A stretch of DNA of 28,863 bases from assembly GCA_036339465.1 (NCBI GenBank), contig JAYZAY010000005.1, positions 1 through 28,863 of the forward strand. Direction: 5' to 3'. Position numbers and translations under genes: made by a program. How positions within the stretch are numbered: the stretch's first letter is position 1; every line of letters starts with the position of its first letter. Source of the DNA: Myxococcota bacterium (lineage in GTDB: Bacteria; Myxococcota; XYA12-FULL-58-9; JABJBS01). Below, one piece after another: positions 1 through 12,582 of the stretch. The notes under the pieces were generated by a model. That model was not told the DNA's origin. It worked only from the letters and a program-made list of their open reading frames with translations, and ran no database searches.

Positions 1-1347
1 TTGATGCTTCCCTACTTTTTTAGACAGGTTGAAGGCTGTCTTGAGTCCCAGACCGGTGAGGCGCGCCACCATCCTATTTTGGAATATATGCAAATCTTTG
101 ACCGCTTTTGCGGGTTCTAGGATCCCCTAAGTTGTGTCCTAATTACCTGATAACCTCCCTGACAGAGTAGGTTCTTAGGCCTCCCCCCAAAAAGACATGA
201 GCTTGGCCCACGGTTTTGGCGGCCCACGCCGGCGTCAGCAAGCGTCTTGAGAAACTAAAAAATTGCAGACTTAGTTATGGCCAGCCCTTTCACCCATACA
301 GACGACACACCCAGAGATAGAATCTTCCCAACCAAAGGGTGGGTCTTCCTAAGAGTCTAGTGCTCGTTGCCTGTGAAGCAGCATACCAGGTGACTGCCTT
401 AGCGCTAAAGAATGTTAAGGCTAGGGCGCTAGGACATTGGAAGAGAAGAAAGTCAGAACAACAAAGCACCTTATCTGGTAACGACTCAGCCTGCTAGACA
501 CGGAAACGGCCATTAAGACAAACACTTACCGCTTTCATAGTAAAGCGGGTTAAACGTTTTAAGGCGACGACAGTTCACCATCTTGACGCTTGCACGAATT
601 AGGGGCCTTGCCATGGGGTGCTGATGCTTCGGCAGACAATTTTGGGTAATCGTTTCAAGCACATGCCTTGGAGCCAGGTTTCCACAAAACCATCTCACCC
701 GCAAAAGCTCTGCGGCGCTGTGGCACCAAAACATAATTGGCTCGTTCGGATGATACTTGCTTAGACAGCAGAGGGCGGAAGTGAGTTGCGAGAATCGTGA
801 CATAAGTATTTAGAAATCTACCACGAAGAAGCTTATGGCTGCTCCTCGGTTTTCGGGTTTGCCTGTATCACTTCTTAGTGCCTGCCCTGGATACCTCGAC
901 CAGACCTTAATATCTTCCCCGCGTGCCTTTCGTAACTCTTTAACTGTAGTTTACACTTCTCTGCTTTCTGGTTTTCGCGACATGGCTCCTGAGCGCCTTC
1001 GTGATAAGGGGGTGTTAAGGTGACTGGACAACCCTCTTTTCTGCAACAACCGCGAGCACATATCCCGAGTTACCTGTAAAACAGCATCCAAGCTTTCCGG
1101 ATTTACCCCGCGACACCCCGCCCTCCGAGCTGTTTACAGGCATCTCGCTATAGGGCTTTGGCGGGTGTACGGCCCTGAGCTTAACATTAAGGCAGCTCGC
1201 AGCCGTATTGGCAAACGGGTAAACCGCTTAGCCGGTTGGAAGAAAAACAGCTTTCCTCGCTTACCTGGCCGGCGGGACGGTGGTAAGTGGGCTCGCCGCG
1301 AGGGCGTTTGACTGGCCAGGCACAGACCAGCCAAAAACTGCCTAATT

Positions 1348-1523
1348 GCCGAGCTGCTTAATGGCTTTACCGGCTAAGTGCTTTGCCGTGCGGCCGCCTA
1401 GACGCGTAATCGATTAAGAGCCTAACAGCTGAGCTGCTTAATGGCTTTACCGGCTAAGTGCTTTGCCGTGCGGCCGCCTAGACGCGAAATCGCTTAAGAA
1501 CCTAATAACTGAGCTGCTTAATA
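1348..1523 (+). repeat. 80-bp tandem duplication (about 2.2 copies; each unit is ten octamers)
   Basis: 56 bp identical at 1351-1406 and 1431-1486; GAGCTGCTTAAT recurs at 1351, 1431 and 1511. Confidence 0.95.
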
Positions 1524-1590
1524 GGTGAGCCGCCTAATAGCTCACCTGCCTATCTGCTGAACTGCTTAATGCCTGAACTGTATACATCTA

Positions 1591-1719
1591 AGCTGCCTTT
1601 TTGCTGAGCTGCCTTTTTGCTGAGCTGCCTTTTTGCTGAGCTGTCTTTTTGCTGAGCTGCCTTTTTGCTGAGCTGCCTTTTTGCTGAGCTGCCTTTTTGC
1701 TGAGCTGTCTTTTTTGCTG
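1591..1719 (+). repeat. 8 x 16-bp tandem repeat AGCTGYCTTTTTGCTG with a 64-bp higher-order period
   Basis: Units start at 1591, 1607, 1623, 1639, 1655, 1671, 1687 and 1703; copies 4 and 8 carry the C>T variant. Confidence 0.97.
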
Positions 1720-1788
1720 AGCCATCTAGCCGCCTGACCGCCTACCTGCGTCACTGGCTACATGCAGACCTGCCTATTTGCTTAACCT

Positions 1789-1947
1789 GCCTAGCGGCTT
1801 ACATGCCTAGCGGCTTACATACCTAGCGGCTTACATGCCTAGCAGCTTACCCGCCTAGCGGGTTACATGCCTAGCAGCTTACCCACCTGACGGCTTACCT
1901 GCTTAACGGCTACCCGCCTGACGGCTTACCTGCTTAACGGGTGAAGC
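1789..1947 (+). repeat. About 10 x 16-bp tandem repeat GCCTAGCGGCTTACAT, degenerating rightwards
   Basis: Units start at 1789, 1805, 1821, 1837, 1853, 1869, 1885, 1901, 1916 and 1932. Confidence 0.93.
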
Positions 1948-2431
1948 GGTCTCGTCGGGAATCCACCTAACCGTAGAGCGGCTACGCCACTCAAGCAGCA
2001 GTGCAGGCGTAGCGCTTTACCCGCAGCCCGCTGCTCCTTCTCGAAGGTTCGCCGCTTTAGCCTCTTGCTGGGTTGAAGCTGCAACGCTTTTCATCTAAGG
2101 CCGTTTCCTGCCGAGATGTTTTACCCCTTCGATGCATTACCGCTAGACGTCTTCCTGGCACAGCACCACCACAGCGCACCGACTTCCTGCTTTAATGCGT
2201 CGCCCCAGTGCAGCTTCCCTGGCAAACAGCGCAGCCGCCTTTCTCTTTGGCGTCATCCCGGTGTCTTCACCTTAGCGCCTAGCCGCTATTCCGTCTATTC
2301 ACTTTCCCGGAACCACGGCAAACTGCTTAACCCTCAAGGCTCCGATACCGCTCTGGCTCCGTAGCTCCTAAATGATATAGCGCTCAAACTTTCGACCACT
2401 AAAACCCTTTGCAACTAAAACGGTAAAAAAA

Positions 2432-2460
2432 TTCACAAGGTTCCAAGGCAAGGGTATGTT
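2432..2460 (+). promoter_or_regulatory. Possible sigma70-type promoter of the par operon
   Basis: TTCACA-17 bp-TATGTT preceded by A-tracts, 72 bp upstream of the parA ATG. Confidence 0.4.
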
Positions 2461-2532
2461 CTCCCCATCACCCTAACAACGCCGCTGGGCAGCGAGTATG
2501 GGGCCAACGAAATTTACAATGGTGAGAAGACC

Positions 2533-3330
2533 ATGCATAAAATCACAATGAGTCAACTGAAGGGTGGGGTGACCAAAACCGCCACCGCTGTCCATCTGGC
2601 CAAAGCTCTCGCAAAAAGGGAGCGGAGAACCCTCTTTATCGATCTCGATCGGCAAGCGTCCGGCTCCCTCATTCTTGGTGTGCCCACATCCCAAGCACAG
2701 CAAGCCTGTGTTGGCGACTGCCTTGGCCCCAAAGCCACCAAGTCCTTGCTCGACATCCTGGTGCAACCCAACAAAGAACAATCTCTCTATATAGCACCAG
2801 CTGCACCGCGGATGACTCAAATCGAAAGTGACCTCTACAAACACGCTCAGAGGGCCATGTTTCTAGACAAAATCCTCAACGAGGTCGAAGACCACTTTCA
2901 CTACGTTGTCATCGATACGCCACCAACCGACCAAACCTACACTCAGGCGGCACTCTTTGCTGCCGAATTGGTCCTCGCGCCCCTACCTTACGAGAGCGGT
3001 ATGCTCCAAGGTTGGCAAGACCTGTTCAACACCCTGACTGAGCTAAATGAATTTCGCAATGCCCCAGCCCAAATTGCAGGCGTCGTTACCAAATTCGACC
3101 GACGTGTTTCTATCACCAATTCAGCCTTCGAAGAAAAATTCCAATCGCTGGGCATGCCACTGGCAGAAACAACTATCCCAAAATGCGAAAAGATAAATCA
3201 AGCGGCCATCGTTCATCAAAGCCTCTTTGAATACGATCCAAAACATGCCGCATGTACCGCGTTTTTAAAATTAGCAGACGAAGTAATAGACGTCTTTGAA
3301 AAAGGTGAGGAGCAACGTCATGTCGCTTAA
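2533..3330 (+). CDS. parA: ParA/Soj-family partition ATPase (type Ib, no N-terminal HTH)
   Basis: Deviant Walker A KGGVTKT, A' motif IDLDRQ, Walker B YVVIDTPP, C-terminal T.IP....I.QA motif; 265 aa. Confidence 0.93.
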   Translation: MHKITMSQLKGGVTKTATAVHLAKALAKRERRTLFIDLDRQASGSLILGVPTSQAQQACVGDCLGPKATKSLLDILVQPNKEQSLYIAPAAPRMTQIESDLYKHAQRAMFLDKILNEVEDHFHYVVIDTPPTDQTYTQAALFAAELVLAPLPYESGMLQGWQDLFNTLTELNEFRNAPAQIAGVVTKFDRRVSITNSAFEEKFQSLGMPLAETTIPKCEKINQAAIVHQSLFEYDPKHAACTAFLKLADEVIDVFEKGEEQRHVA

Positions 3331-3634
3331 AAACAGTGCTGTAGCCGCTAAAAAGAAAAGCCTTTTAGCCATACCAGATCCAGAAGACCGCGAACTGCCA
3401 AAGAAATCCAGTAAGCCGGCGGCTGTCGTCGTTTCTGACCAAACCACCGATCCACAAGGATCCCATCCTCAACCCCAAACCACCACCAGCGAGGAGAGTA
3501 AGCGTAAAGTCACTCTCTACTTACCAACCGCCGTTCATAAGCGACTCAAGCACCTCGCCGTGGACCGAGATAGCCAAGTCTCCGCCATCGCCACGGACAT
3601 GTTGATACAGGGTCTCGAAAATATCAACGCATAA
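3320..3634 (+). CDS. Small ribbon-helix-helix centromere-binding protein (ParG/Omega-like), 104 aa
   Basis: GAGGAG RBS before ATG 3320, overlapping the parA end. Disordered N-terminus, then KRKVTLYLPTAVHKRLKHLAVDRDSQVSAIATDMLIQGL (beta-alpha-alpha RHH pattern). Confidence 0.82.
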   Translation: MSLKNSAVAAKKKSLLAIPDPEDRELPKKSSKPAAVVVSDQTTDPQGSHPQPQTTTSEESKRKVTLYLPTAVHKRLKHLAVDRDSQVSAIATDMLIQGLENINA

Positions 3635-3770
3635 ACATTTCGTATCTTGCACCCAGGCCCTCTTTTAAGCACGTGCCATAAGAATTCCATTCGCGGCGCC
3701 ACACCTAGCTCCGAAATCCTCACCAAACAAAAAAAATTTGAACTCCGCGCCCACACAACCCTCTCAAATC

Positions 3771-3818
3771 TGCACTGCCCGCTAACACCAACCCACGGGT
3801 GCACCGCCCGCTAACACC
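3771..3818 (-). repeat. Two inverted-orientation iteron-like repeats
   Basis: TGCACYGCCCGCTAACACC at 3771 and 3800. Its reverse complement GGTGTTAGCGGGCRGTGCA resembles the array sequence AGTGCTAGCGGGCGGCGCA. Confidence 0.7.
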
Positions 3819-3985
3819 GCGCACGAAAAAATAACCATGACCAACTTCTCCCCAAACACCCACAATACGAATACCTCTTTTATTTCCAGATACTTACGTA
3901 AGTCCCAACCTCCATCTCTCCGGTCGACTTGCGCTAGATTGGTCGCTCGACCTCACAAAAAGATCCAAATCCGATCAAAACGATG

Positions 3986-4174
3986 GCGCACAGTTCATAA
4001 ATGCTAGCGCACAGTTCATAAATGCTAGCGCACAGTTCATAAATGCTAGCGCACAGTTCATAAGTGCTAGCGCACAGTTCATAAGTGCTAGCGGGCGGCG
4101 CAAAAATGCTGGCGCGGGAAACAAAAATGCTAGCGCACAGGTGCAGAATGTTGGCGTCCAGTGCAAAGATGACT
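3986..4174 (+). repeat. Iteron array, 21-bp unit GCGCACAGTTCATAARTGCTA (5 near-perfect and 4 degenerate copies); replication origin
   Basis: Units start at 3986, 4007, 4028, 4049 and 4070, with degenerate units at 4091, 4112, 4133 and 4154. The period is two helical turns and the array lies directly upstream of the initiator gene. Confidence 0.9.
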
Positions 4175-4255
4175 TAATATCCATTAAGATTGTTAAAGAT
4201 TTTCAGCTCTACTATATAAATAAGATACTAGATCAATACTAGATCTACTAAAAGG
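4172..4255. promoter_or_regulatory. AT-rich DNA-unwinding element of the origin
   Basis: AT-rich tract between iterons and rep, with repeated AAGAT and ATACTAGATC x2. Confidence 0.65.
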
Positions 4256-4262
4256 CAACCCA

Positions 4263-5858
4263 ATGAGTGACCTTCATGATTCTGAAAATCAATCCAATGA
4301 CTACCCAGCGATTCCAGGGCAAATGAATCTCTTAGACAAAATTTCTCCTTATCGCCATCGCTCCGTTGACGATTTGAACCTCATTGAATTGCCAATTTCC
4401 TTATTGAGCAACTCCAATCAAGGTCTCGCACGCATGAAATTAGAGAGAGATCCAGGGGGGATGTTACGGATCCCACTTTCTCCAGATTCTACACGTTTTC
4501 TTTTGGTTCCTTCAGCCGAGGCTGTGCCCACCGCTCTCGGTGAACGTGTTTTACTCGCCCTCCTTTGGATGCACAATGACTTGTATCAATTTGCGACCCC
4601 AGAAATCACCTTTGATGTGAATATGTTTTTATCCACATATCTTTATCCCAATGTGAAAACACGAATTTCCCAGAGCCAACGCGATGCAGTCCTACAAGAG
4701 CTTGAGTGGTTCTCGTCAATGAGGTTAGGTGCTGTTGATTTTTTTCAACGCGTCATTCGTGATGTTGGCTCTGAAGAGGTTGTGATGCGAAACCCCCAAA
4801 ATGCAGCTATTTTTGAACAATTCCAAATTCATGCCCGAAGGCGCGATGCAGAGCCAGCCAAACAATCCAAACGTGGTGCTCGTCGCGTGGTTTACGAAAG
4901 AAAGGGTGGCCCTATTCGCGTCACGATACGCTGGGGAGAAACGGTGTACCGCTCACTTGCCAAAGATAAGCTGACCAAGCGACTCAATCCGCTTATCTTG
5001 TTGGAAGCTAAAAACCCACTCGATTTAAGATTATACCGTTGGCTTGATAAGCATTTTTACAAAATTGACGAGATCTTTGTTGATTCAATCATCAATTTTG
5101 CGCGCTACAAGATGTTTATGCAGGCGCAGAAACTTCATCAGAGTCCAAAGACCGCCTCCAAATACGCGATGACCAAGATTGAGCAAAGCCTCGAAAGATT
5201 ACGAGGTTTAAATTATCCTGTTTCCATTGAAGCCAATACTCGTTTTGATGACTACCGAATTACTTTTAAAAAGTTGGATATCAGCCAAAAAGACCCAAGC
5301 TCGGTAGTTGAAGCAAAACTCACGGAATCCGACGACCTGTTCCTTTTGTCCTTTTTTACGAAGCTACGTTTTGGAGATGCTGCACCAGATAGACCAATTT
5401 ACAACACCAAAGAAAAGCAGCTTGCCAAGAAATTTCTGGCGACATACAAAACCCTAGCTTACGCCAAGGAAATCGTGCAAGAGTGCTTCGGGATTATCAA
5501 ACGGGCTAAGGGCACCACCGAACACGTAAAAGCTTTTACCTATCTCACGTATTTTGCCAACGACGCTGAAGCCAATCTCAAGAAATCCAAACGTCGTCAG
5601 AAACCGAAAGAGAAAACCAATCCACTGGATGCTTGGGATATCTATCGAGAGAACCAACTTGAACAAGCAAAACGCGCCATGGCCTCCAATGAACAGGACG
5701 AAATGAGAGACGACATAGCCCGTGAATTAACGCAGGATGTTCAGTTTGGAAAACACAATGAAAAAACCAAACAGGCGCTTATTACGGCAGCTCTTGAAGA
5801 CGAACTTCTTCGGCGCTTGGGCGCTATGGATGAGCAGGAATTCCTAGCAACGTTATAA
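4263..5858 (+). CDS. repA: Plasmid-type replication initiator (RepA/RPA-like), 531 aa
   Basis: N-terminal DDLNLIELPISLLS and central PLDLRLYRWLDKHF resemble RPA-family motifs (DEMNLAEFP; P.ARRLYR.LDK.F). Adjacent to iterons and par genes. Confidence 0.78.
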   Translation: MSDLHDSENQSNDYPAIPGQMNLLDKISPYRHRSVDDLNLIELPISLLSNSNQGLARMKLERDPGGMLRIPLSPDSTRFLLVPSAEAVPTALGERVLLALLWMHNDLYQFATPEITFDVNMFLSTYLYPNVKTRISQSQRDAVLQELEWFSSMRLGAVDFFQRVIRDVGSEEVVMRNPQNAAIFEQFQIHARRRDAEPAKQSKRGARRVVYERKGGPIRVTIRWGETVYRSLAKDKLTKRLNPLILLEAKNPLDLRLYRWLDKHFYKIDEIFVDSIINFARYKMFMQAQKLHQSPKTASKYAMTKIEQSLERLRGLNYPVSIEANTRFDDYRITFKKLDISQKDPSSVVEAKLTESDDLFLLSFFTKLRFGDAAPDRPIYNTKEKQLAKKFLATYKTLAYAKEIVQECFGIIKRAKGTTEHVKAFTYLTYFANDAEANLKKSKRRQKPKEKTNPLDAWDIYRENQLEQAKRAMASNEQDEMRDDIARELTQDVQFGKHNEKTKQALITAALEDELLRRLGAMDEQEFLATL

Positions 5859-5917
5859 TCGTCTCCGAAATTCTCTGAATTTTTCTTTCAATTAAGGCCG
5901 GTGATTTCGTCGGAGGA

Positions 5918-5930
5918 GGGGAGGGAAGGG
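5918..5930 (+). other. Two overlapping KOPS-like octamers (GGGGAGGG, GGGAAGGG) pointing toward the dif-like site
   Basis: Match GGGNAGGG; a third (GGGCAGGG) is at 7709-7716. Confidence 0.5.
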
Positions 5931-6327
5931 GACTGACCTAACATCCGGCACTCTTTAATTTGCATTGACGCACCTGTATTACATTCGAGGCTTAAATGGT
6001 CCCGTTTGACAGGTGTCGCAGAAAGGCCCAACCGTAATATACGAAACATCGACTTCAACAGCTTTCTTGGTGTGTAGACATCTCTTTCCCTATGTCGTGC
6101 AAAGAACTTTGGGCTTGCCATCCATGCGAGGCGGACTTGTTCATCCCCACCGAATGCGCACAGATATTGAGTGTTTAAAATACAAGTATTCAGTTTTTCC
6201 CCAGAGAGGTAAGAGGCTTTATTTTCTTTTAGACATCCTAAGTAGCTGTTATTAAATCTGAATTTGTTTGGTTATGTAATCTTCAAGTTGGTGTTGCTAT
6301 TTACATACTTGGTGGTAAGATAGGACC

Positions 6328-7506
6328 ATGATTCAAAGAGAAATGGCACCAGAGCTTATTCAGGTAGCCAATGAGTATCCGGTTGTTACCATCCTCGGGC
6401 CGCGCCAATCAGGAAAAACGACCTTAGCAAAAATGACTTTTCCTGATTACGACTACTGCTCTCTTGAGGAGCCCGATGTTCGAAACTTTGCATCTACTGA
6501 TCCCAGGGCATTCTTAGCCCAATACCAAAAGGATGTTATTTTTGATGAGATTCAACGTGTCCCCACGCTCCTGTCCTACATTCAAACTCTAGTCGATGAA
6601 CATAATTTTAAGGGACGCTTTATTTTAACCGGATCCCATCAACTAGAGCTTAGGGCTGAAATATCTCAATCCCTTGCTGGACGAACTGCTATCCTCTCAT
6701 TGCTTCCTTTAAGTATCAGTGAGGTCAAAACCATCAAACAATTCGAGAATAAGGATGACTATATCTTCAATGGATTTTTTCCTCGAATTTACAATGACCA
6801 TTTAAATCCAACCCGCGCTTATTCCAACTACTATAAGACCTATATCGAGAGAGATGTCAGGCAACTAATCAACCTTAAAGATGTATCGCAATTCGAGAAA
6901 TTCTTAAGGCTAATGGCAGGCAGAGTAGGGCAAGTTCTAAACTTAAGCTCTCTTTCAAACGATGTGGGTGCGAGTAGTACCACCTTGAAGGAATGGCTTT
7001 CTATTTTGGAAGCTTCATTCATCGTTTATAAACTACTTCCATACTTTGAAAATTTCGGTAAAAGAGTCATTAAGTCACCTAAATACTATTTTACAGACGT
7101 TGGACTTCTCTCTTACCTTCTTGGAATCGATAAGAAAGAACAAGTATTAAGGGATCCCTTGATTGGAAATATCTTTGAGAATCTAGTTGTCATTGAATGT
7201 TTAAAGAACCGGTATAATCAAGGTAAGGAGAGTAACCTCTATTTCTTTCGCGACAGCAATGGAAACGAAGTTGATCTTCTTTTGGATAATGCAAGAAAGC
7301 TTACACCTGTGGAGATTAAATCTTCTTCCACCTTTAATATTAACTTTACTAAAGGAATCAAAAAGCTCCAAGGGATCACGGCTAATTGTACACAGGGTTA
7401 TGTGGTTTATGCTGGAGACTTCTTTCCCGTAACCGAGGAATACCGGACGATTCATTTTACGGCGGTGAATTCCTTAGGTAGGGATTTTGGTAGTGAGGTT
7501 AGGTAG
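6328..7506 (+). CDS. AAA_14/DUF4143 family ATP-binding protein
   Basis: Walker A GPRQSGKT, Walker B IFDEIQ, ILTGS, KSPKYYFTDVGL, C-terminal EVDLL..PVEIK. More AT-rich than its neighbours. Confidence 0.93.
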   Translation: MIQREMAPELIQVANEYPVVTILGPRQSGKTTLAKMTFPDYDYCSLEEPDVRNFASTDPRAFLAQYQKDVIFDEIQRVPTLLSYIQTLVDEHNFKGRFILTGSHQLELRAEISQSLAGRTAILSLLPLSISEVKTIKQFENKDDYIFNGFFPRIYNDHLNPTRAYSNYYKTYIERDVRQLINLKDVSQFEKFLRLMAGRVGQVLNLSSLSNDVGASSTTLKEWLSILEASFIVYKLLPYFENFGKRVIKSPKYYFTDVGLLSYLLGIDKKEQVLRDPLIGNIFENLVVIECLKNRYNQGKESNLYFFRDSNGNEVDLLLDNARKLTPVEIKSSSTFNINFTKGIKKLQGITANCTQGYVVYAGDFFPVTEEYRTIHFTAVNSLGRDFGSEVR

Positions 7507-7523
7507 GAGGTTTTGTCTTGTGT

Positions 7524-7551
7524 AGTTATGCGAACAGTTATTCTCATAACT
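7524..7551. other. Palindromic tyrosine-recombinase-type core site (11-6-11)
   Basis: AGTTATGCGAA-CAGTTA-TTCTCATAACT; arms match at 10/11 positions as an inverted repeat. Confidence 0.55.
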
Positions 7552-8056
7552 TACGCCCGTTTATATATTCCCCACAATCAATTAACCCCAAAGCACCAAG
7601 CCAAAAAAAAACTCCATGTAACACCAGCCCCATCAGGCGCTTCAGCCTGGTCTGCCCCAGCTTTTTCGAAGCTTCAGCCTTTTACAATTTACGCGTAGGG
7701 CCTTTTTCGGGCAGGGGTGGGTTGCATGCCGCAGCAAGCTTATTGGGTGGGTACCTATCTCTGCAAACAAGAAAGAGGGAGAGAAAGACATATGCGCGGT
7801 CGTGGTGGACTCTACAACGAAGAGTTCAGGTGGGTAAAAAGCTTCGCTGGAGTGCGTTACGCCGGCAGAGATACTTGCAGCCATACTCAATTGCCGAGCA
7901 AAAGCCGCAACTAAATCAAGAGCCACGCAATACGGAGCCACGTCCATTTTATCAAAGTGAAATTTATACTCTGCAAATTACACAGTAGGCCAAATTGACA
8001 TGCCGGCTCTATTTACGCAGATAAATGGAACAAAAAGTAGGCACGACTTTATAATG

Positions 8057-8084
8057 GTGCCTGATAATACATATTATGGATAAC
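8057..8084 (+). other. dif-like XerC/XerD recombination site
   Basis: GTGCCTGATAA-TACATA-TTATGGATAAC has the conserved ATAA-N6-TTATG core and 17/28 identity to E. coli dif. It is intergenic, and KOPS-like motifs converge on it. Confidence 0.65.
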
Positions 8085-8693
8085 CCATAACATAAAGTGA
8101 GTGTTGTCCAGGCAACTTTCAAAAGTCGGTACTTTTCTTGATCCGTTTTTTTCCTTCGTCTTTGTTATTCGAAGCCGCACGCACTCAATCTATTGCTCTT
8201 TTCCCAAGAACCCCCTGGACGAGGAGGATACAAATTATTACTTTCCCGTTCCCACAAAGACATTACTTTCCCCGTCACCATTGAAACCGATCTGGCGTAA
8301 AAATACGAGGATTCTTAGGAAGTAGTTGAACTCCCTTTAATCCAACTTACGAGACGACGTAGCCCTATGACGATTCCCACAAGGCACCTACCGTTTGATG
8401 ACGCTCGGAATATGGCAGGTGTTTTTCTGGGGGAAGCCTCTCTTTTACGAGGCTGAGAAGCTTGTTTAAATTTCCCCTTCATTTAAGCTTCAATCAGCAG
8501 CGCAGGATTTCACCAACACGTCCTGGAGAGAGTTTTGACCATAAAGCATCAAGTCTTGAACTTCTTGTCACTTTTTATGGAGAGCTTGGGCCATACTCAT
8601 CTACAGACGAAACATGATGGATAAAAGTAATTGGGACAAAAAGGAAAAGGCCGTTGATTTAAATCCACATCACCCGTGACCGCCTTATACACC

Positions 8694-9914
8694 CTACGAA
8701 GATACCGGTCTGCTCTTCGTAACCTTAAAACCGGCATCCACGATAGTAGTCACAACGGCTAGCTCGTCCATAGTACCTTTGACCAATGCCTGCCCAGCGG
8801 CAAAAGTAACCTCGGCACTTTCAACGCCCACCATAGCCATCAAACACTTCTGCAGACGGGAAGAACACCCACCACACTTCATCCCCTCAATTTGCAATGT
8901 GAACACAGATGGACCCACGTCACCCATACGACGGGGAAGACGTTGCCGGAGGTCGTCGAGGGCAAACTTTGCCAAAAGCCCGCTGAGGACCACGGCCGAG
9001 AGGGTTATCCACCAAGAAGTTGATTCGTGCGTGTGCTGCATCAAATCGAAAACCTGGTCGGGAAATAGCGAGTCAAAGAGCAAACCCAAACTGACACTCC
9101 CAATCACAATCGTCGCCAAATAAACCCCAAGCACTCGCTTACCAAGTCCTCTATACACGGCTCCTACCGTCGCCACATTGGTCGCGGGACCCGCCATAAG
9201 GAAAACCAAAGCAGCGCCCGTGGGTAATCCACTCGCAATTAATGCCGCCGCAATGGGGACCGATGCAGTGGCGCAAACATAGAGGGGAAGACCAATCATC
9301 AGGGCCCCAAGCATCGCCAACCACGGATCTGCTGCGCCCAATTCTACGATCCAACTCTCCGGTGCAAACACGCCGATGGCCGCCGAGACAACGATACCGA
9401 AAATGAGCCACCGCCAGACAGTCTGTAAAATTTGAAGTCCATGTGTAACGCCGTCATACAAACTTGGACGTGCGCCCTTTGAATTGGTCACTCCGAAATG
9501 TCCTTGCCTATTCTCGGGCTCTACCCAATCCGCCAGGAAACCTCCCACCAAGCCGGTAAGTAAAGCACTAAGAACCTTGAAGATGGCGAAGGGCCAACCC
9601 AGCAAAGACGCACTCACCAAAATTGAATCCACCCCCGTCTGAGGCGTGCTTATCAAAAAGCCCGTCGTCGCACCACGGCTGGCACCCTGCTGCCGCAGGC
9701 CGAGTCCTGTGGGGATAACTCCGCATGAACAGAGAGGAAGAGGAACCCCAAGTAAGACGGCTTTGACCACACCCCAAAATCCACGCAATTCGCGCTGAAT
9801 GAAATTCTTCGGAATAAAGACATGCAATAGTCCGGCGATGCCGGCGCCAAGAAGCAACCACGGAGAAAGCTTGAGCATAATAGCCCAGAGGGCCACGAAC
9901 ATTTCCATTATCAT
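8694..9914 (-). CDS. SO_0444/ArsP-type metal efflux permease with C-terminal HMA domain
   Basis: PLPLCSCGVIP, ISTPQTGVDS, PLYVCATASVPIAA and AGPATN motifs; C-terminal GMKCGGC. Confidence 0.92.
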   Translation of the reverse strand: MIMEMFVALWAIMLKLSPWLLLGAGIAGLLHVFIPKNFIQRELRGFWGVVKAVLLGVPLPLCSCGVIPTGLGLRQQGASRGATTGFLISTPQTGVDSILVSASLLGWPFAIFKVLSALLTGLVGGFLADWVEPENRQGHFGVTNSKGARPSLYDGVTHGLQILQTVWRWLIFGIVVSAAIGVFAPESWIVELGAADPWLAMLGALMIGLPLYVCATASVPIAAALIASGLPTGAALVFLMAGPATNVATVGAVYRGLGKRVLGVYLATIVIGSVSLGLLFDSLFPDQVFDLMQHTHESTSWWITLSAVVLSGLLAKFALDDLRQRLPRRMGDVGPSVFTLQIEGMKCGGCSSRLQKCLMAMVGVESAEVTFAAGQALVKGTMDELAVVTTIVDAGFKVTKSRPVSS

Positions 9915-10634
9915 TCCAACCCCAACCTCTTTGCTGGCAACTTATAGATAAACTCTACAAACGCATCACGAGAGCATCAACCGAAGATTGACGATTCCGC
10001 AGAGCTTGCCATACGCTACAAACAAAACCAACCACGTGGGAATCATGACTCAATCTATTAGAATCATCTTCTTTTTCCATAAAAATAAACGATCCTTTCA
10101 CCTCCCTGAGTCGCCAAAAAGATTTCCCATCTATTTTGCAGATATTCGGTGCCTAGGGATTCCATTGGCAAGCGCCTCGGCAGTAGAGCATTCGGATGGG
10201 TCAGTCATAATGTTGTAGAGAATCTGTCGCCCCTCAAAAGGAAACTGACCGACAACTCTGTCTTATCGACTTTGACGATTCCGAGTTTCAACATTATCTC
10301 AATGATTTGGTTCCGATAGTTTATACCTTTCCCCAAAGCACCCTCAACCAAGCGGCGTATGCGACTTTCTTTTTTAATCATCGTGTGTTGGGCTAGGGTC
10401 GTTGAAGCTTGGGGCTCCTTACCTATTCCGAAATTCTTCTCTCTTTTTACAATTCCAGCCCCCATGCTCCATACACCGAACGTTAAACTCGACCAAGACG
10501 ATGCACTCGAATTGAGCCTGGTTTTGGGGACCCCGATTTATTGATGCACGCGGATTACGAAAACATCGTCAGGGAGTGTTTAGCGCAAGACCTGTATCAC
10601 GATAAATCCCAAATTGGCGGGCTCCTCTTAGGTT

Positions 10635-11087
10635 TCACAAAAGGGCTTCGAGCCATCCATCGAGGCAAATATTCAATCGGTTTCGGCAGGCGATAAAGGC
10701 ATCTAAGTTTTGACCCACAGGATCCGTAATCCCGGTGAGGGGTCGAGAATGCTCTCCGAACTCCCACATACAGACGATTTTTTCCGTTAGTTCAGGTGCA
10801 TCGCCATGAAGCATCTTTTTATGCTCCGGTGCCATTCCCACAATGTGATCACATGTGGTCAAAAGAGAGATGCGTATCCCCTGGGAACGATGGTGGGAAA
10901 TATCAATACCTATATTTTTCATGGCTTCAACGGCATGAAGTGAAGCGGATTCGCCCTCAATCTTGAGGGTCCCCGCGGAGCAAACCTGTGCGAGAATGTT
11001 CAGACGCGCCAACTTGGCAATGGCCAAGCCTTCGGCCATGGGTGAGCGACAAATATTCCCACTGCAAATGAACATGACCTTTATCAT
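10635..11087 (-). CDS. Low-molecular-weight protein tyrosine/arginine phosphatase
   Basis: CSGNICRSPMAE P-loop, SAGT and the DP motif (ITDPVG). Confidence 0.93.
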   Translation of the reverse strand: MIKVMFICSGNICRSPMAEGLAIAKLARLNILAQVCSAGTLKIEGESASLHAVEAMKNIGIDISHHRSQGIRISLLTTCDHIVGMAPEHKKMLHGDAPELTEKIVCMWEFGEHSRPLTGITDPVGQNLDAFIACRNRLNICLDGWLEALL

Positions 11088-11646
11088 TTTATCTCTCCGA
11101 ATGCCCGGATTGCTAAGGCTTAACGTTGACCATCAAATCAGAAAGTTTATCTTTCACTATACTTTTCAAAATGACGAGACGTGCATACCCATAGATATGG
11201 AATCGTTTTAGGAATCGTTTTAGCTATCCTTCACCTCGCGACCGAATTATAACCAGACCCAAACATGACATAACCTCCTTAATCGAAGTTCCCAGCCTTA
11301 AAATGCGCCAATAAAAACGCACGTATTTTCCCGTTGCCTCGAAAAAGGGCGGCAGTTGGCTCCCAAGGGCATGGTCTGGACCTTTGACACTAGTTACCAC
11401 GAAGGCAAAGTAAGAGAGCACTCAGCAGAAACAACCCTACATGGATTTACGATGTTGGATCCGTTGCCAGGAAACTTGGGCGACTCCGACCTTCGAAGAA
11501 ACCTATAGATATCGAGATTTTTTCAAACCAATAAACCAGCCACAAAATGGAAAACAAACCCAGCCATGGCCACGAAATTCATGGCATGTAATTACCTCTA
11601 TTCAACGCTCTCTTAGAATGCATCAGCGCCTATTCTCACTTCGAAC

Positions 11647-12582
11647 CTATAACTTGGGCTTAGCCCCCAGCATCGACCCTGTTCCTAAGTTAGGTTCTTC
11701 CTCTAACTCAGACTCTTGCTCTAATCCTGACGCCTCCCCGAACTCGGACCCATCTGATGGAATTAACGAGGGCTCTACTCTTTCTGGCTCTTCCAAAGCA
11801 TTCCCCACCCTCTTTGAAGGATTTCCCACCCTCTCTGAAGGATTAAGTCCCAAGAGGGAATCGAAGTCAAAACGCTCCGTCACGAGTTTATCGGTATCTT
11901 GGTAAAGACTCTTTTTTTGAGCTTGTCGCGCCATATTGGCTATGGTTTGACCGGGTACCTCTTTGTTCACGAGATTAACCACCCACATGGGGACCCATCC
12001 TCCCGGGTCCGCCTCCACAGCATAAGTAACCATGGTTTTGTTGGGGCCCTTGTATTCTAAAACCCAACTTCCATTGCACCTTTCCATACGTTCAATGCCG
12101 TTTTGATGAGGAATGTCTTTATGTGGGACACTCCAAAATGGAGCATGAACCGTATGAGATTTTGGATCAAAAACAAGACCTGTTCTCAAAATAACATCCC
12201 GGTCACTTACCATAATAAAGGGACTGTCCATATGGTTGTAGACCGTGAATTCCGACTTGGAGTGGGTATCAATGATCCTAAAATCCACCGTTTTGTCTAG
12301 AAGTTTTTTCTTATGATCCGTGTCGTACAATACCACAAAGATATCTCGTATGGGTGCTTCAATCAGACCCTGCCCTTTGAACATCACCAGCGGAGGGGCA
12401 GCACCCTCCCCATCACCGATGGCAAGGCCCGCGAAATGCCCATTTTGAAAAAATAAGGCAAAAGCAACAAGGAATAATGCGAAAACAAAAATAACCCTCG
12501 AGCGGCTTAAATAGGTACTGCGAACTTTGTTATCATCGATTCCCGAAGCGTCATTTGCAGAACCCGGCTTCTCTTGAGACAT
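11647..12582 (-). CDS. Membrane-anchored START-domain lipid-binding protein with an acidic low-complexity tail
   Basis: GGGAG RBS before ATG 12582; N-terminal TM helix; FKGQGLIEAPI, VSDRDVIL, GSWVLE, VTYAVEADPGGWVPMWVVN. Confidence 0.85.
   Translation of the reverse strand: MSQEKPGSANDASGIDDNKVRSTYLSRSRVIFVFALFLVAFALFFQNGHFAGLAIGDGEGAAPPLVMFKGQGLIEAPIRDIFVVLYDTDHKKKLLDKTVDFRIIDTHSKSEFTVYNHMDSPFIMVSDRDVILRTGLVFDPKSHTVHAPFWSVPHKDIPHQNGIERMERCNGSWVLEYKGPNKTMVTYAVEADPGGWVPMWVVNLVNKEVPGQTIANMARQAQKKSLYQDTDKLVTERFDFDSLLGLNPSERVGNPSKRVGNALEEPERVEPSLIPSDGSEFGEASGLEQESELEEEPNLGTGSMLGAKPKL

Follow-up and report, generated by a model that had tools for sequence, protein, structure and literature searches.

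In the plasmid sites cer and psi, the XerC arm diverges and accessory sequences are needed, and the integrative mobile elements exploiting Xer (IMEX) found at dif include the CTX and TLC phages of Vibrio and the gonococcal island. According to one account, chromosome II of Pseudoalteromonas, which has a RepA initiator and the origin ori2, is replicated unidirectionally and carries its dif2 site 4-27 kb from ori2; plasmid theta replication is described in the same text as mostly unidirectional (PMC7858055). The DNA analysed here (the window) is the entire contig C5, 28,863 bp in length, of the Myxococcota draft genome G000, a metagenome-assembled genome (MAG) of 102 contigs and 4.17 Mb that is 92.8% complete and 1.4% contaminated. 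It carries a plasmid-type replication module, consisting of an iteron origin, a rep gene and partition genes, and a dif-like Xer site at 8057-8084, 3.8 kb from the iterons.

An earlier note on this DNA regarded the position of an origin next to dif as anomalous, and proposed either a unidirectionally replicated chromid or a plasmid integrated at the chromosomal dif. This premise fails for plasmids, which commonly carry Xer sites, cer being the original case (PMC9765430). Since it is normal on plasmids, and has been described for one-way chromids, to find a Xer site within a few kb of a plasmid-type origin, the paradox is mostly dissolved; such closeness is expected on plasmid backbones and is no anomaly in itself, and here it is probably a matter of ordinary plasmid design. 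The genome contains five paralogous modules with dif-like sites travelling with them, and the site is therefore more likely to be part of the module than a chromosome terminus. The reading preferred here, held with somewhat more confidence than doubt, is that 8057-8084 is the module's own dimer-resolution or integration site. What is new is a divergent branch of plasmid initiators, a dif consensus for the lineage and, within one genome, a link between rep modules and sites that are poor in the XerD arm.

The layout of the module resembles that of mini-F (RepE/ori2), R6K (Pi), RK2 (TrfA) and the PF10134 plasmids of Deinococcus-Thermus and Planctomycetes, with which it shares 21-bp repeats and an AT-rich stretch upstream of the initiator gene. 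A parA-type operon adjoins, and the predicted fold of Rep matches RepE54, Pi and domains 2-3 of RctB; compared with RepE-type structures, the helical C-terminal half of the 531-aa window protein (about 200 aa) is not covered. Pseudoalteromonas chromosome II is similar in its plasmid-type initiator and origin, in having a dif-like site a few kb away and in its one-signed skew, whereas the present case comprises only 28.9 kb, shows no core gene, has a degenerate XerD arm and involves five modules instead of one. ColE1 cer, pSC101 psi and the pdif sites of Acinetobacter Rep_3 plasmids are likewise host-Xer sites that lie near rep/par genes and have diverged from chromosomal dif, and the present genome resembles them in having several dif-like sites with different centres. 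It is the XerD arm, however, that diverges at the window site, in contrast to cer and psi, and no paired sites bracketing modules were seen. The IMEX type (CTX/TLC, the gonococcal island and, in PMC9765430, Legionella LME-1) is similar in lacking an integrase of its own and in having a dif-like site with one poor arm. The window element differs in that no second flanking site was found, the poor arm is on the wrong side for a simple single integration, and a full replication and partition kit is present.

Dif-like sites and the modules they accompany

The window site lies on the + strand in an intergenic stretch 2.2 kb downstream of rep, and consists of the XerC-type arm GTGCCTGATAA, the centre TACATA and the degenerate XerD-type arm TTATGGATAAC. 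General dif motifs failed to single it out: it ranked 262nd of 467 in a scan with the E. coli 28-mer, and it has 5 mismatches to a proteobacterial consensus, which ten other places in the genome match equally well or better. A pattern and a matrix derived from the lineage were therefore used. Thirty related genomes, each a draft of 50-930 contigs, were searched, and the sites of 20 of them provided the matrix and consensus. The main dif sites of these relatives are near-invariant, with ATGTCTGATAA followed by TATATA or TGTATA and then TTATGTAAACT, which gives a working dif consensus for this uncultured marine order.

In the matrix scan the window site tops the whole assembly with 24.9 bits, the runner-up reaching 19.7, which bears out the dif-like site proposed in the earlier note and leaves no better-scoring candidate elsewhere in the assembly. 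The relatives' own sites score higher (32-49 bits), because the XerD arm of the window site is degenerate: the XerC arm contributes 14.4 of 19.2 bits, the centre 6.9 of 9.5 and the XerD arm 3.6 of 20.0, with four of its 11 positions off, so that the 11-6-11 match does not extend to both arms. The XerC arm is identical to that of the site in G005, which belongs to the same family, while the G008 site has the identical centre TACATA. The pattern TGNCNGATAA-N6-TTATG occurs in six copies in G000, compared with about 0.1 expected from its 13 fixed bases, and the six exact matches carry six different centres. It is found in 21 of the 30 relatives, in one or two copies each; the reversed-pattern control gave a single match across all 31 genomes. 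Of the shorter pattern GATAA-N6-TTATG the genome has 19 occurrences where 9 would be expected, and six of the 19 have TGNCN on the left. Judged from sequence comparison, 8057-8084 is a real Xer-type site, typical of the lineage and half degenerate, on which Xer may act. No second copy was found in the assembly with up to 8 mismatches allowed, and no second dif-like site lies in 1-8056, where the contig ends 1.3 kb to the left of the par arrays.

Four more intact Rep paralogs, 29-31% identical, are encoded on contigs C21, C45, C68 and C86 of the same genome. Tandem repeats with 21-23-bp units lie upstream of those on C21, C45 and C86, only a 142-bp unit was found on C68, and the repeat sequences differ between modules. 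ParA adjoins rep in at least C21 and C45, and C21 repeats the order seen in C5, namely 16-bp array, parA, small open reading frame (ORF), iterons and rep. The two best matrix hits of the 4.17-Mb assembly, C5:8057 and C21:28773, lie within 3 kb of rep paralogs, and a one-mismatch site lies 1.7 kb from rep on C45; the C86 module has a tyrosine recombinase directly after rep, in place of a site, and the C68 module is truncated by the contig end. As the assembly contains 16 sites with at most one mismatch in 4.17 Mb, about 0.03 would be expected per module. The module-linked sites all lack the canonical XerD arm, and plasmid replication modules of this genome are accompanied by dif-like sites whose XerD arm is weakened. 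Such a grouping of replication, partition and multimer resolution is typical of plasmid backbones. Moreover, in C5, C21 and C45 alike the site lies on the side where the fork, its direction being taken from the flank skew, arrives at the iterons, and the XerD arm points toward that fork; with a sample of three, the chance that C21 and C45 match C5 is about 1 in 16. Among the 30 relatives the Rep family is patchy, with one full-length copy each in G001, G004, G008 and G019 and two short fragments in G017.

The other exact matches of the 13-base pattern are at C4:61096-61123(-), C12:44416-44443(+), C21:75568-75595(-), C24:47294-47321(+) and C91:16706-16733(-). They have differing central hexamers and non-canonical XerD arms, are non-coding or nearly so, and in three cases lie within 2 kb of a contig end; the C24 site has, at a distance of about 5 kb, genes that adjoin the canonical dif of G003, a relative belonging to the same family. 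These five sites are candidates for difs of several replicons, IMEX scars or pdif-like borders. Two other explanations of the dif-like sites were rejected. A conserved gene start at the ATG or GTG of the arm does not fit, since four of the six frames are closed after 8-14 codons, among them that of the window site, which opens at the arm GTG and ends after 8 codons; the other two run for 41 codons (C24) and remain open past 61 (C4). Ends of a single repeat element were also considered, and the sites share near-zero flanking sequence, with just C12, C24 and C77 having 37-55 bp in common.

Eight of 28 dif-pattern sites in related MAGs (L030-L032, L038, L047, L048, L052 and L053) lie within 1.2 kb of a contig end, which suggests that assemblies tend to break at dif, via population variation or low coverage of the terminus. 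A near-perfect palindromic dif-like site, AGTTCACATAA TACATA TTATGTGAATC, was observed at about 2667-2694 of the metagenome locus L096 (Ga0066639_10022991), where a distant relative of rep, preceded by 22-bp repeats, lies 1.8 kb away. With regard to recombinases, G000 has one clearly Xer-like gene, on C66, which scores 266 bits with the XerC model and 237 bits with the XerD model. A XerD-type gene above 320 bits is present in G002 and G005 and absent from the assemblies of G000, G001 and G003; about 7% of the G000 genome is unassembled, and both a canonical dif and the xerD gene may sit there.

The iteron origin, its initiator and the partition genes

The iteron array occupies 3986-4174 on the + strand and comprises five 21-bp direct repeats (3986-4090) followed by four in-phase degenerate copies (4091-4174). 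The repeats starting at 3986, 4007 and 4028 are perfect and those at 4049 and 4070 have one mismatch, while the degenerate copies have 7 mismatches each (4091, 4112 and 4133) or 8 (4154); for 3986-4093, Tandem Repeats Finder (TRF) gives 5.1 copies of a 21-bp unit (98% matches). No further copy was found elsewhere in the window in either orientation. Between the iterons and the rep start codon (ATG at 4263), a 102-bp AT-rich stretch at 4161-4262 is a candidate unwinding element, with 71% AT compared with 54% in the iterons themselves, and contains an 11-bp direct repeat with two GATC motifs at 4225-4245. Together with the rep and parA genes described below, these elements agree with the intact origin and partition genes that had been proposed for the locus.

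The rep gene (4263-5858, + strand) encodes a 531-aa protein that is assigned to a divergent branch of the RPA / Rep_3 / TrfA group of tandem winged-helix initiators. A word-indexed protein search with Rep returned one relative, P0002 (27% identity), which matches PF10134 (RPA) at 2e-11. A profile built from the five genomic paralogs and P0002 matched 1006 proteins at E<=1e-3, of which about 40 are full-length and many share just the first ~210 profile positions. When 30 proteins drawn from the best 150 matches were examined, PF10134 was present in 27 (25 above the cut-off) over the equivalent N-terminal ~210 positions; six of the sample also match Rep3_N, six match TrfA and three are without a match. 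None of the four Rep paralogs matched a PF10134-type model at E<=1. P0058, a distant member of the family, has matches on 105 plasmid records from Deinococcus, Thermus and Planctomycetes, in genes that carry the annotation "replication initiator protein A"; three of these plasmids are co-resident in one Planctomyces strain.

The AlphaFold model of Rep, based on a 40-sequence alignment, has a mean predicted local distance difference test score (pLDDT) of 87.3 and a predicted template modelling score (pTM) of 0.66. The best Foldseek match in the PDB is RctB domains 2-3 (E 1.9e-4), and RctB entries account for all three matches at E<=0.001. The following places, ranks 4 to 43 (E 0.003-0.3), are taken by iteron initiators, namely RepE54, 8aan/8ac8, Pi and RepE; dozens of RepE54 entries match the model, with target TM scores up to 0.69, and 8aan and 8ac8 are complexes of Rep with iterons and the DNA unwinding element. 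A search of PDB sequences with the Rep profile gave nothing relevant. Sequence and modelled structure place Rep among the iteron initiators, in a divergent RPA/RepE-like branch not captured by present family models or plasmid databases, and it would be expected to fire the iteron origin. Tandem repeats of 21-23 bp lie upstream of rep in three of four loci from other genomes and in 10 of 14 metagenome loci, and the iteron-rep arrangement is a trait of the family.

Upstream of rep, the parA gene (2533-3330, + strand) encodes a 265-aa Walker-type partition ATPase matching Pfam AAA_31 (5.3e-33) and CbiA (1.5e-14); its best NCBIfam match is ParA_partition (1.1e-24), which is under the cut-off of that model. 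Overlapping it is an ORF for a small basic protein of 112 aa (3296-3634, + strand), the true start of which is probably the ATG at 3320. The C-terminus of this protein is of ribbon-helix-helix (RHH) appearance, with weak matches to PF20605 Antitox_RHH (E 0.015 and 0.013), and the protein is a candidate centromere-binding partner resembling ParG. A 116-aa ORF occupies the equivalent slot after parA on C21. Further upstream, at 1340-1933, TRF finds an 80-bp unit in 2.3 copies and three arrays of 16-bp units in 8-13 copies; these arrays, with about 600 bp of 16-bp periodicity upstream of parA, are from their position likely to be a candidate centromere of the parC/parS kind. The C21 module has a 16-bp array of different sequence at the matching relative position. 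With respect to type Ib partition systems, ParA is clear and upstream arrays are present, and the RHH match is weak.

The stretch from 1340 to 8084 may be regarded as the maintenance backbone of a low-copy, plasmid-type theta replicon. ParA and the RHH-like protein would act in partition, using the upstream 16-bp arrays as a centromere. Rep would attach to the iterons, open the AT-rich DNA and control the expression of its own gene. The Xer site, worked by one or more host Xer recombinases, would either resolve dimers of the replicon, in the way of plasmid cer/psi or chromid dif2, or serve as an attachment site of the module.

Skew, assembly and competing explanations

GC skew on the + strand is -0.17 to -0.27 at 1.5-4.5 kb, left of the origin, about zero at 4-8 kb, where GC falls to 0.39-0.45, and -0.06 to -0.2 to the right of the site. 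The excess of C over G that had been judged by eye on both sides is thus real. No change of sign occurs at the iterons or at the site over all 28.9 kb; the normal switch at the iteron origin, which would have spoken for two equal replichores, is not seen. A terminus-like change from + to - at the site is also missing, with only 8 kb available to its left. Such a comparison is weak in these drafts, because the canonical dif of G003 (L054, on contig C329 at 5504) likewise lacks a switch on its 15-kb contig, the skew being about -0.16 and about -0.13 on either side. The genes on the left flank of L054 are orthologous to those at 39.7-42.5 kb of C24 in G000, where the skew has the opposite sign. 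At the consensus dif on large contigs of the more distantly related G007, G018 and G013 the skew is too weak (about +/-0.02) to tell, and the complete RPA plasmid pPL62-2 of Planctomyces (86 kb) has a skew without a readable pattern.

The direction of replication in the right flank can be read from dnaA-dnaN on C30, where the skew becomes positive rightward; the leading strand is therefore G-rich, and the right-flank forks move leftward, toward the site. The motif GGGNAGGG, which resembles FtsK-orienting polar sequences (KOPS) and has a bias of about 3:1 to the G-rich strand genome-wide, has three occurrences on the + strand (5918, 5923 and 7709) and seven on the - strand, between 12368 and 18026. 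Within the genome, sharp flips of skew from - to + were observed on two other contigs: at C23:11099-11560 (flip at about 11.3 kb), where short repeats lie densely between divergent genes, and at C16:29400-31700 (flip at about 30 kb), at a 767-aa ORF of 21-42-bp repeats. Both loci are likely to be other plasmid-type origins. As the modules have no switch although C23 and C16 show one, the RPA-like modules would either fire one way or ride passively. The C21 module, on a 79-kb contig, has a skew opposite to both of its flanks, and with respect to the flank skew it is turned in the opposite direction to the modules of C5, C45 and C86.

Contigs from the Logan resource for four marine or seawater metagenome runs from three studies, one of which may be the source of the assembly, were mapped on positions 1-12000. 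They are 0.25-2 kb long with depths of 1-8. A chimeric join near 7.5-8.6 kb would have spoken against the observation; where this was checked, the sequence is not chimeric, with one contig of run X1 covering 7250-8374 with zero differences and one of run X2 covering 8273-8680. Both sides of the site are covered in all four runs and depth is flat across the module and its flank, which gives no indication of an insertion that is multicopy or variable. No joints, circular junction or empty-site form were seen on 1-12000, which means little because the Logan contigs are short and of low depth.

Several results weigh against regarding the site as part of a plasmid-type module. The right-flank skew directs forks at it, and the polarity of GGGNAGGG flips there, which agrees with the claim of the earlier note that KOPS-like motifs point to the site, although the left side of the flip comprises two independent loci only. 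The window site is also the best dif candidate of the assembly, in which neither a canonical XerD arm joined to a dif-like left half nor, at 92.8% completeness, a XerD-type recombinase was found. The association between sites and modules is known from one genome: no dif-like site lies near rep on the contigs of four relatives, which are short and whose lineages may use other sites, and among the 14 metagenome loci, again on short contigs, L096 is the one that has such a site. An origin-type skew switch is missing from all four modules that have two flanks, a result that fits one-way or passive replication and does not fit a bidirectional origin. Finally, the module departs from the known iteron plasmids in three respects, as Rep has no Pfam match even at E<=10 and no NCBIfam match, tblastn against 72,556 PLSDB plasmids gave no match, and a DnaA box within one mismatch of the 9-mer is absent from 3701-4300.

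A rival explanation, unlikely but with a good part of these points in its favour, is that the site is the true chromosomal dif, at which a Rep/Par plasmid integrated by Xer recombination as IMEX do and is now passively replicated. The top dif score of the assembly, the XerC arm shared with G005 and the centre shared with G008 would suit a chromosomal dif, but a Xer crossover should leave the chromosomal arm on the far side, and the arm facing the chromosome-like flank is the degenerate one. Likewise, the right-flank skew and the GGGNAGGG polarity aim at the site, whereas the left 8 kb contain no arm of opposite skew, and similar degenerate sites adjoin other rep modules away from any skew switch. 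Low GC (0.39-0.45) and near-zero skew from rep to the ATPase gene resemble those of foreign DNA, a Legionella plasmid with 22 bp of dif integrates efficiently at dif (PMC9765430), and the eight relatives' sites within 1.2 kb of a contig end look as if populations vary at dif; yet neither the contig nor the assembly contains a second site with up to 8 mismatches, and the canonical dif may lie in the ~7% of the genome that is unassembled. What stands of the proposed integration is the best dif candidate, while the second flanking site, a canonical XerD arm and usable synteny are lacking. It is hardly credible, by comparison, that the site is a chance or unrelated AT-rich palindrome, such as the operator of a regulator, and that only the Rep/Par module is meaningful. 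The 5 mismatches to the proteobacterial consensus (with ten genome places equal or better), the rank of 262nd among 467 against E. coli dif and the count of GATAA-N6-TTATG (19, with 9 expected) would fit this idea, but the 13-base pattern is about 50 times over-represented in the genome, genomes across the order keep one or two copies of it, the reversed control being nearly empty, the lineage consensus is matched at 10 of 11 XerC-arm positions (shared with G005) and at the centre, and the short frames from the arm ATG or GTG, stopping in 8-14 codons at four of six sites, do not represent a conserved gene start.

Returning to the preferred reading, in which the site belongs to the module, one sub-case is that the contig belongs to an autonomous secondary replicon (megaplasmid or chromid) replicated one way from the iterons, with a dimer-resolution site just before the end of the replication path; this is possible but on balance doubtful. 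It would account for the single skew sign over 28.9 kb with no switch at the origin, but passive replication by a larger replicon yields an equal skew, and the C21 module, being contrary in skew and orientation, does not look like the driver of its contig. The sharp flips on C23 and C16 also mean that a working bidirectional plasmid origin would show here. On C5, as on C21 and C45, the site is found on the side of the iterons where forks arrive, at a distance of 3.8 kb in C5, and PMC7858055 offers a precedent in the 4-27 kb between ori2 and dif2 of Pseudoalteromonas chromids and in the mostly unidirectional theta replication of plasmids. The five Rep paralogs, which are old, about 29% identical and with distinct repeats, are what compatible co-resident replicons would have, and one Planctomyces strain holds three plasmids, each with its own RPA paralog; MAG binning, however, does not prove that contigs share one cell. 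No tRNA lies on the five module contigs, where 1.5 would be expected (a difference that is not informative), and no ribosomal protein, tRNA synthetase, polymerase or other core informational gene was seen among the ORFs scanned on C5, C21, C45 and C86; the right flank of C5 also lacks synteny to family relatives, with which two control regions are collinear over at least 17 kb. The termini of C5, on the other hand, show no overlap and no end repeat, and the Logan contigs contain no circular junction. Over the 28.9 kb at hand, the plasmid-type origin, nearby dif-like site and single skew sign are those of a unidirectional chromid, whereas no core gene was recognised among the scanned ORFs and the Logan contigs give only a flat depth. 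That the contig is part of a larger replicon which carries the module passively is judged to fall just short of an even chance. An extended form, in which this uncultured marine bacterium of Myxococcota/Bdellovibrionota-like type would keep several co-resident one-way replicons, each having an RPA-like initiator and a dif-like site with a private hexamer before the returning fork and its XerD arm facing that fork, appears improbable.

These readings differ in their consequences. If the modules are autonomous, this would be a many-replicon genome outside the usual phyla and a second, independent case of an origin-adjacent dif with one-way replication. If they are integrated, several intact iteron origins would be tolerated inside a chromosome. 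If co-resident one-way replicons are the true state, an origin beside dif would become a general design rule of the plasmid family, beyond one gammaproteobacterial chromid.

Cargo genes, flanks and a dispersed repeat

Between rep and the Xer site, a gene at 6328-7506 (+ strand) encodes an AAA_14 / DUF4143 ATPase (Pfam DUF4143 8.8e-50, AAA_14 2.9e-28), which is the cargo of the window module. The same slot holds an HD-domain protein in the C45 module and an Eco57I-type methylase in the C21 module. On C21, two ORFs of about 1100 aa lie directly downstream of the rep paralog (C21:17891-24440), one of which has Eco57I/MmeI-type methylase domains, and this is the restriction-modification cargo of that module. 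The first 1.3 kb of the window contain no ORF above 96 aa, no tRNA and no Rfam family, no tRNA or Rfam match was found on the contig as a whole, and no core gene was recognised among its scanned ORFs.

Just to the right of the site, at 8694-11087, an ArsP-type permease fused to a heavy-metal-associated domain is followed by a gene for a low-molecular-weight phosphatase resembling arsenate reductase; the GC content of 0.52-0.53 is above the contig mean. Family relatives have no more than scattered single genes in common with the right flank, and gene order is not conserved: among the relatives' contigs compared, the recurring C5 ORFs are a methyltransferase and ArsP only. The genes next to dif also differ among G002, G003 and G005.

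On the - strand at 8380-8616, outside the replicon kit, a dispersed repeat of about 240 bp is present in degenerate form and marks the right border region. This copy has no long open frame, and the repeat has no match in Pfam. Six other copies are present in the genome, at C86:5123-5351, C86:18858-19098, C56:3898-4142, C46:20572-20797, C58:18994-19142 and C50:18653-18742. The second C86 copy (C86b) keeps a 124-aa frame, and the open copies presumably resemble the N-terminus of an HNH-endonuclease family, a likeness that Pfam does not confirm, so the repeat is left unnamed. The copies are 72-82% identical, and two of them in the same orientation bracket the rep-recombinase module of C86.

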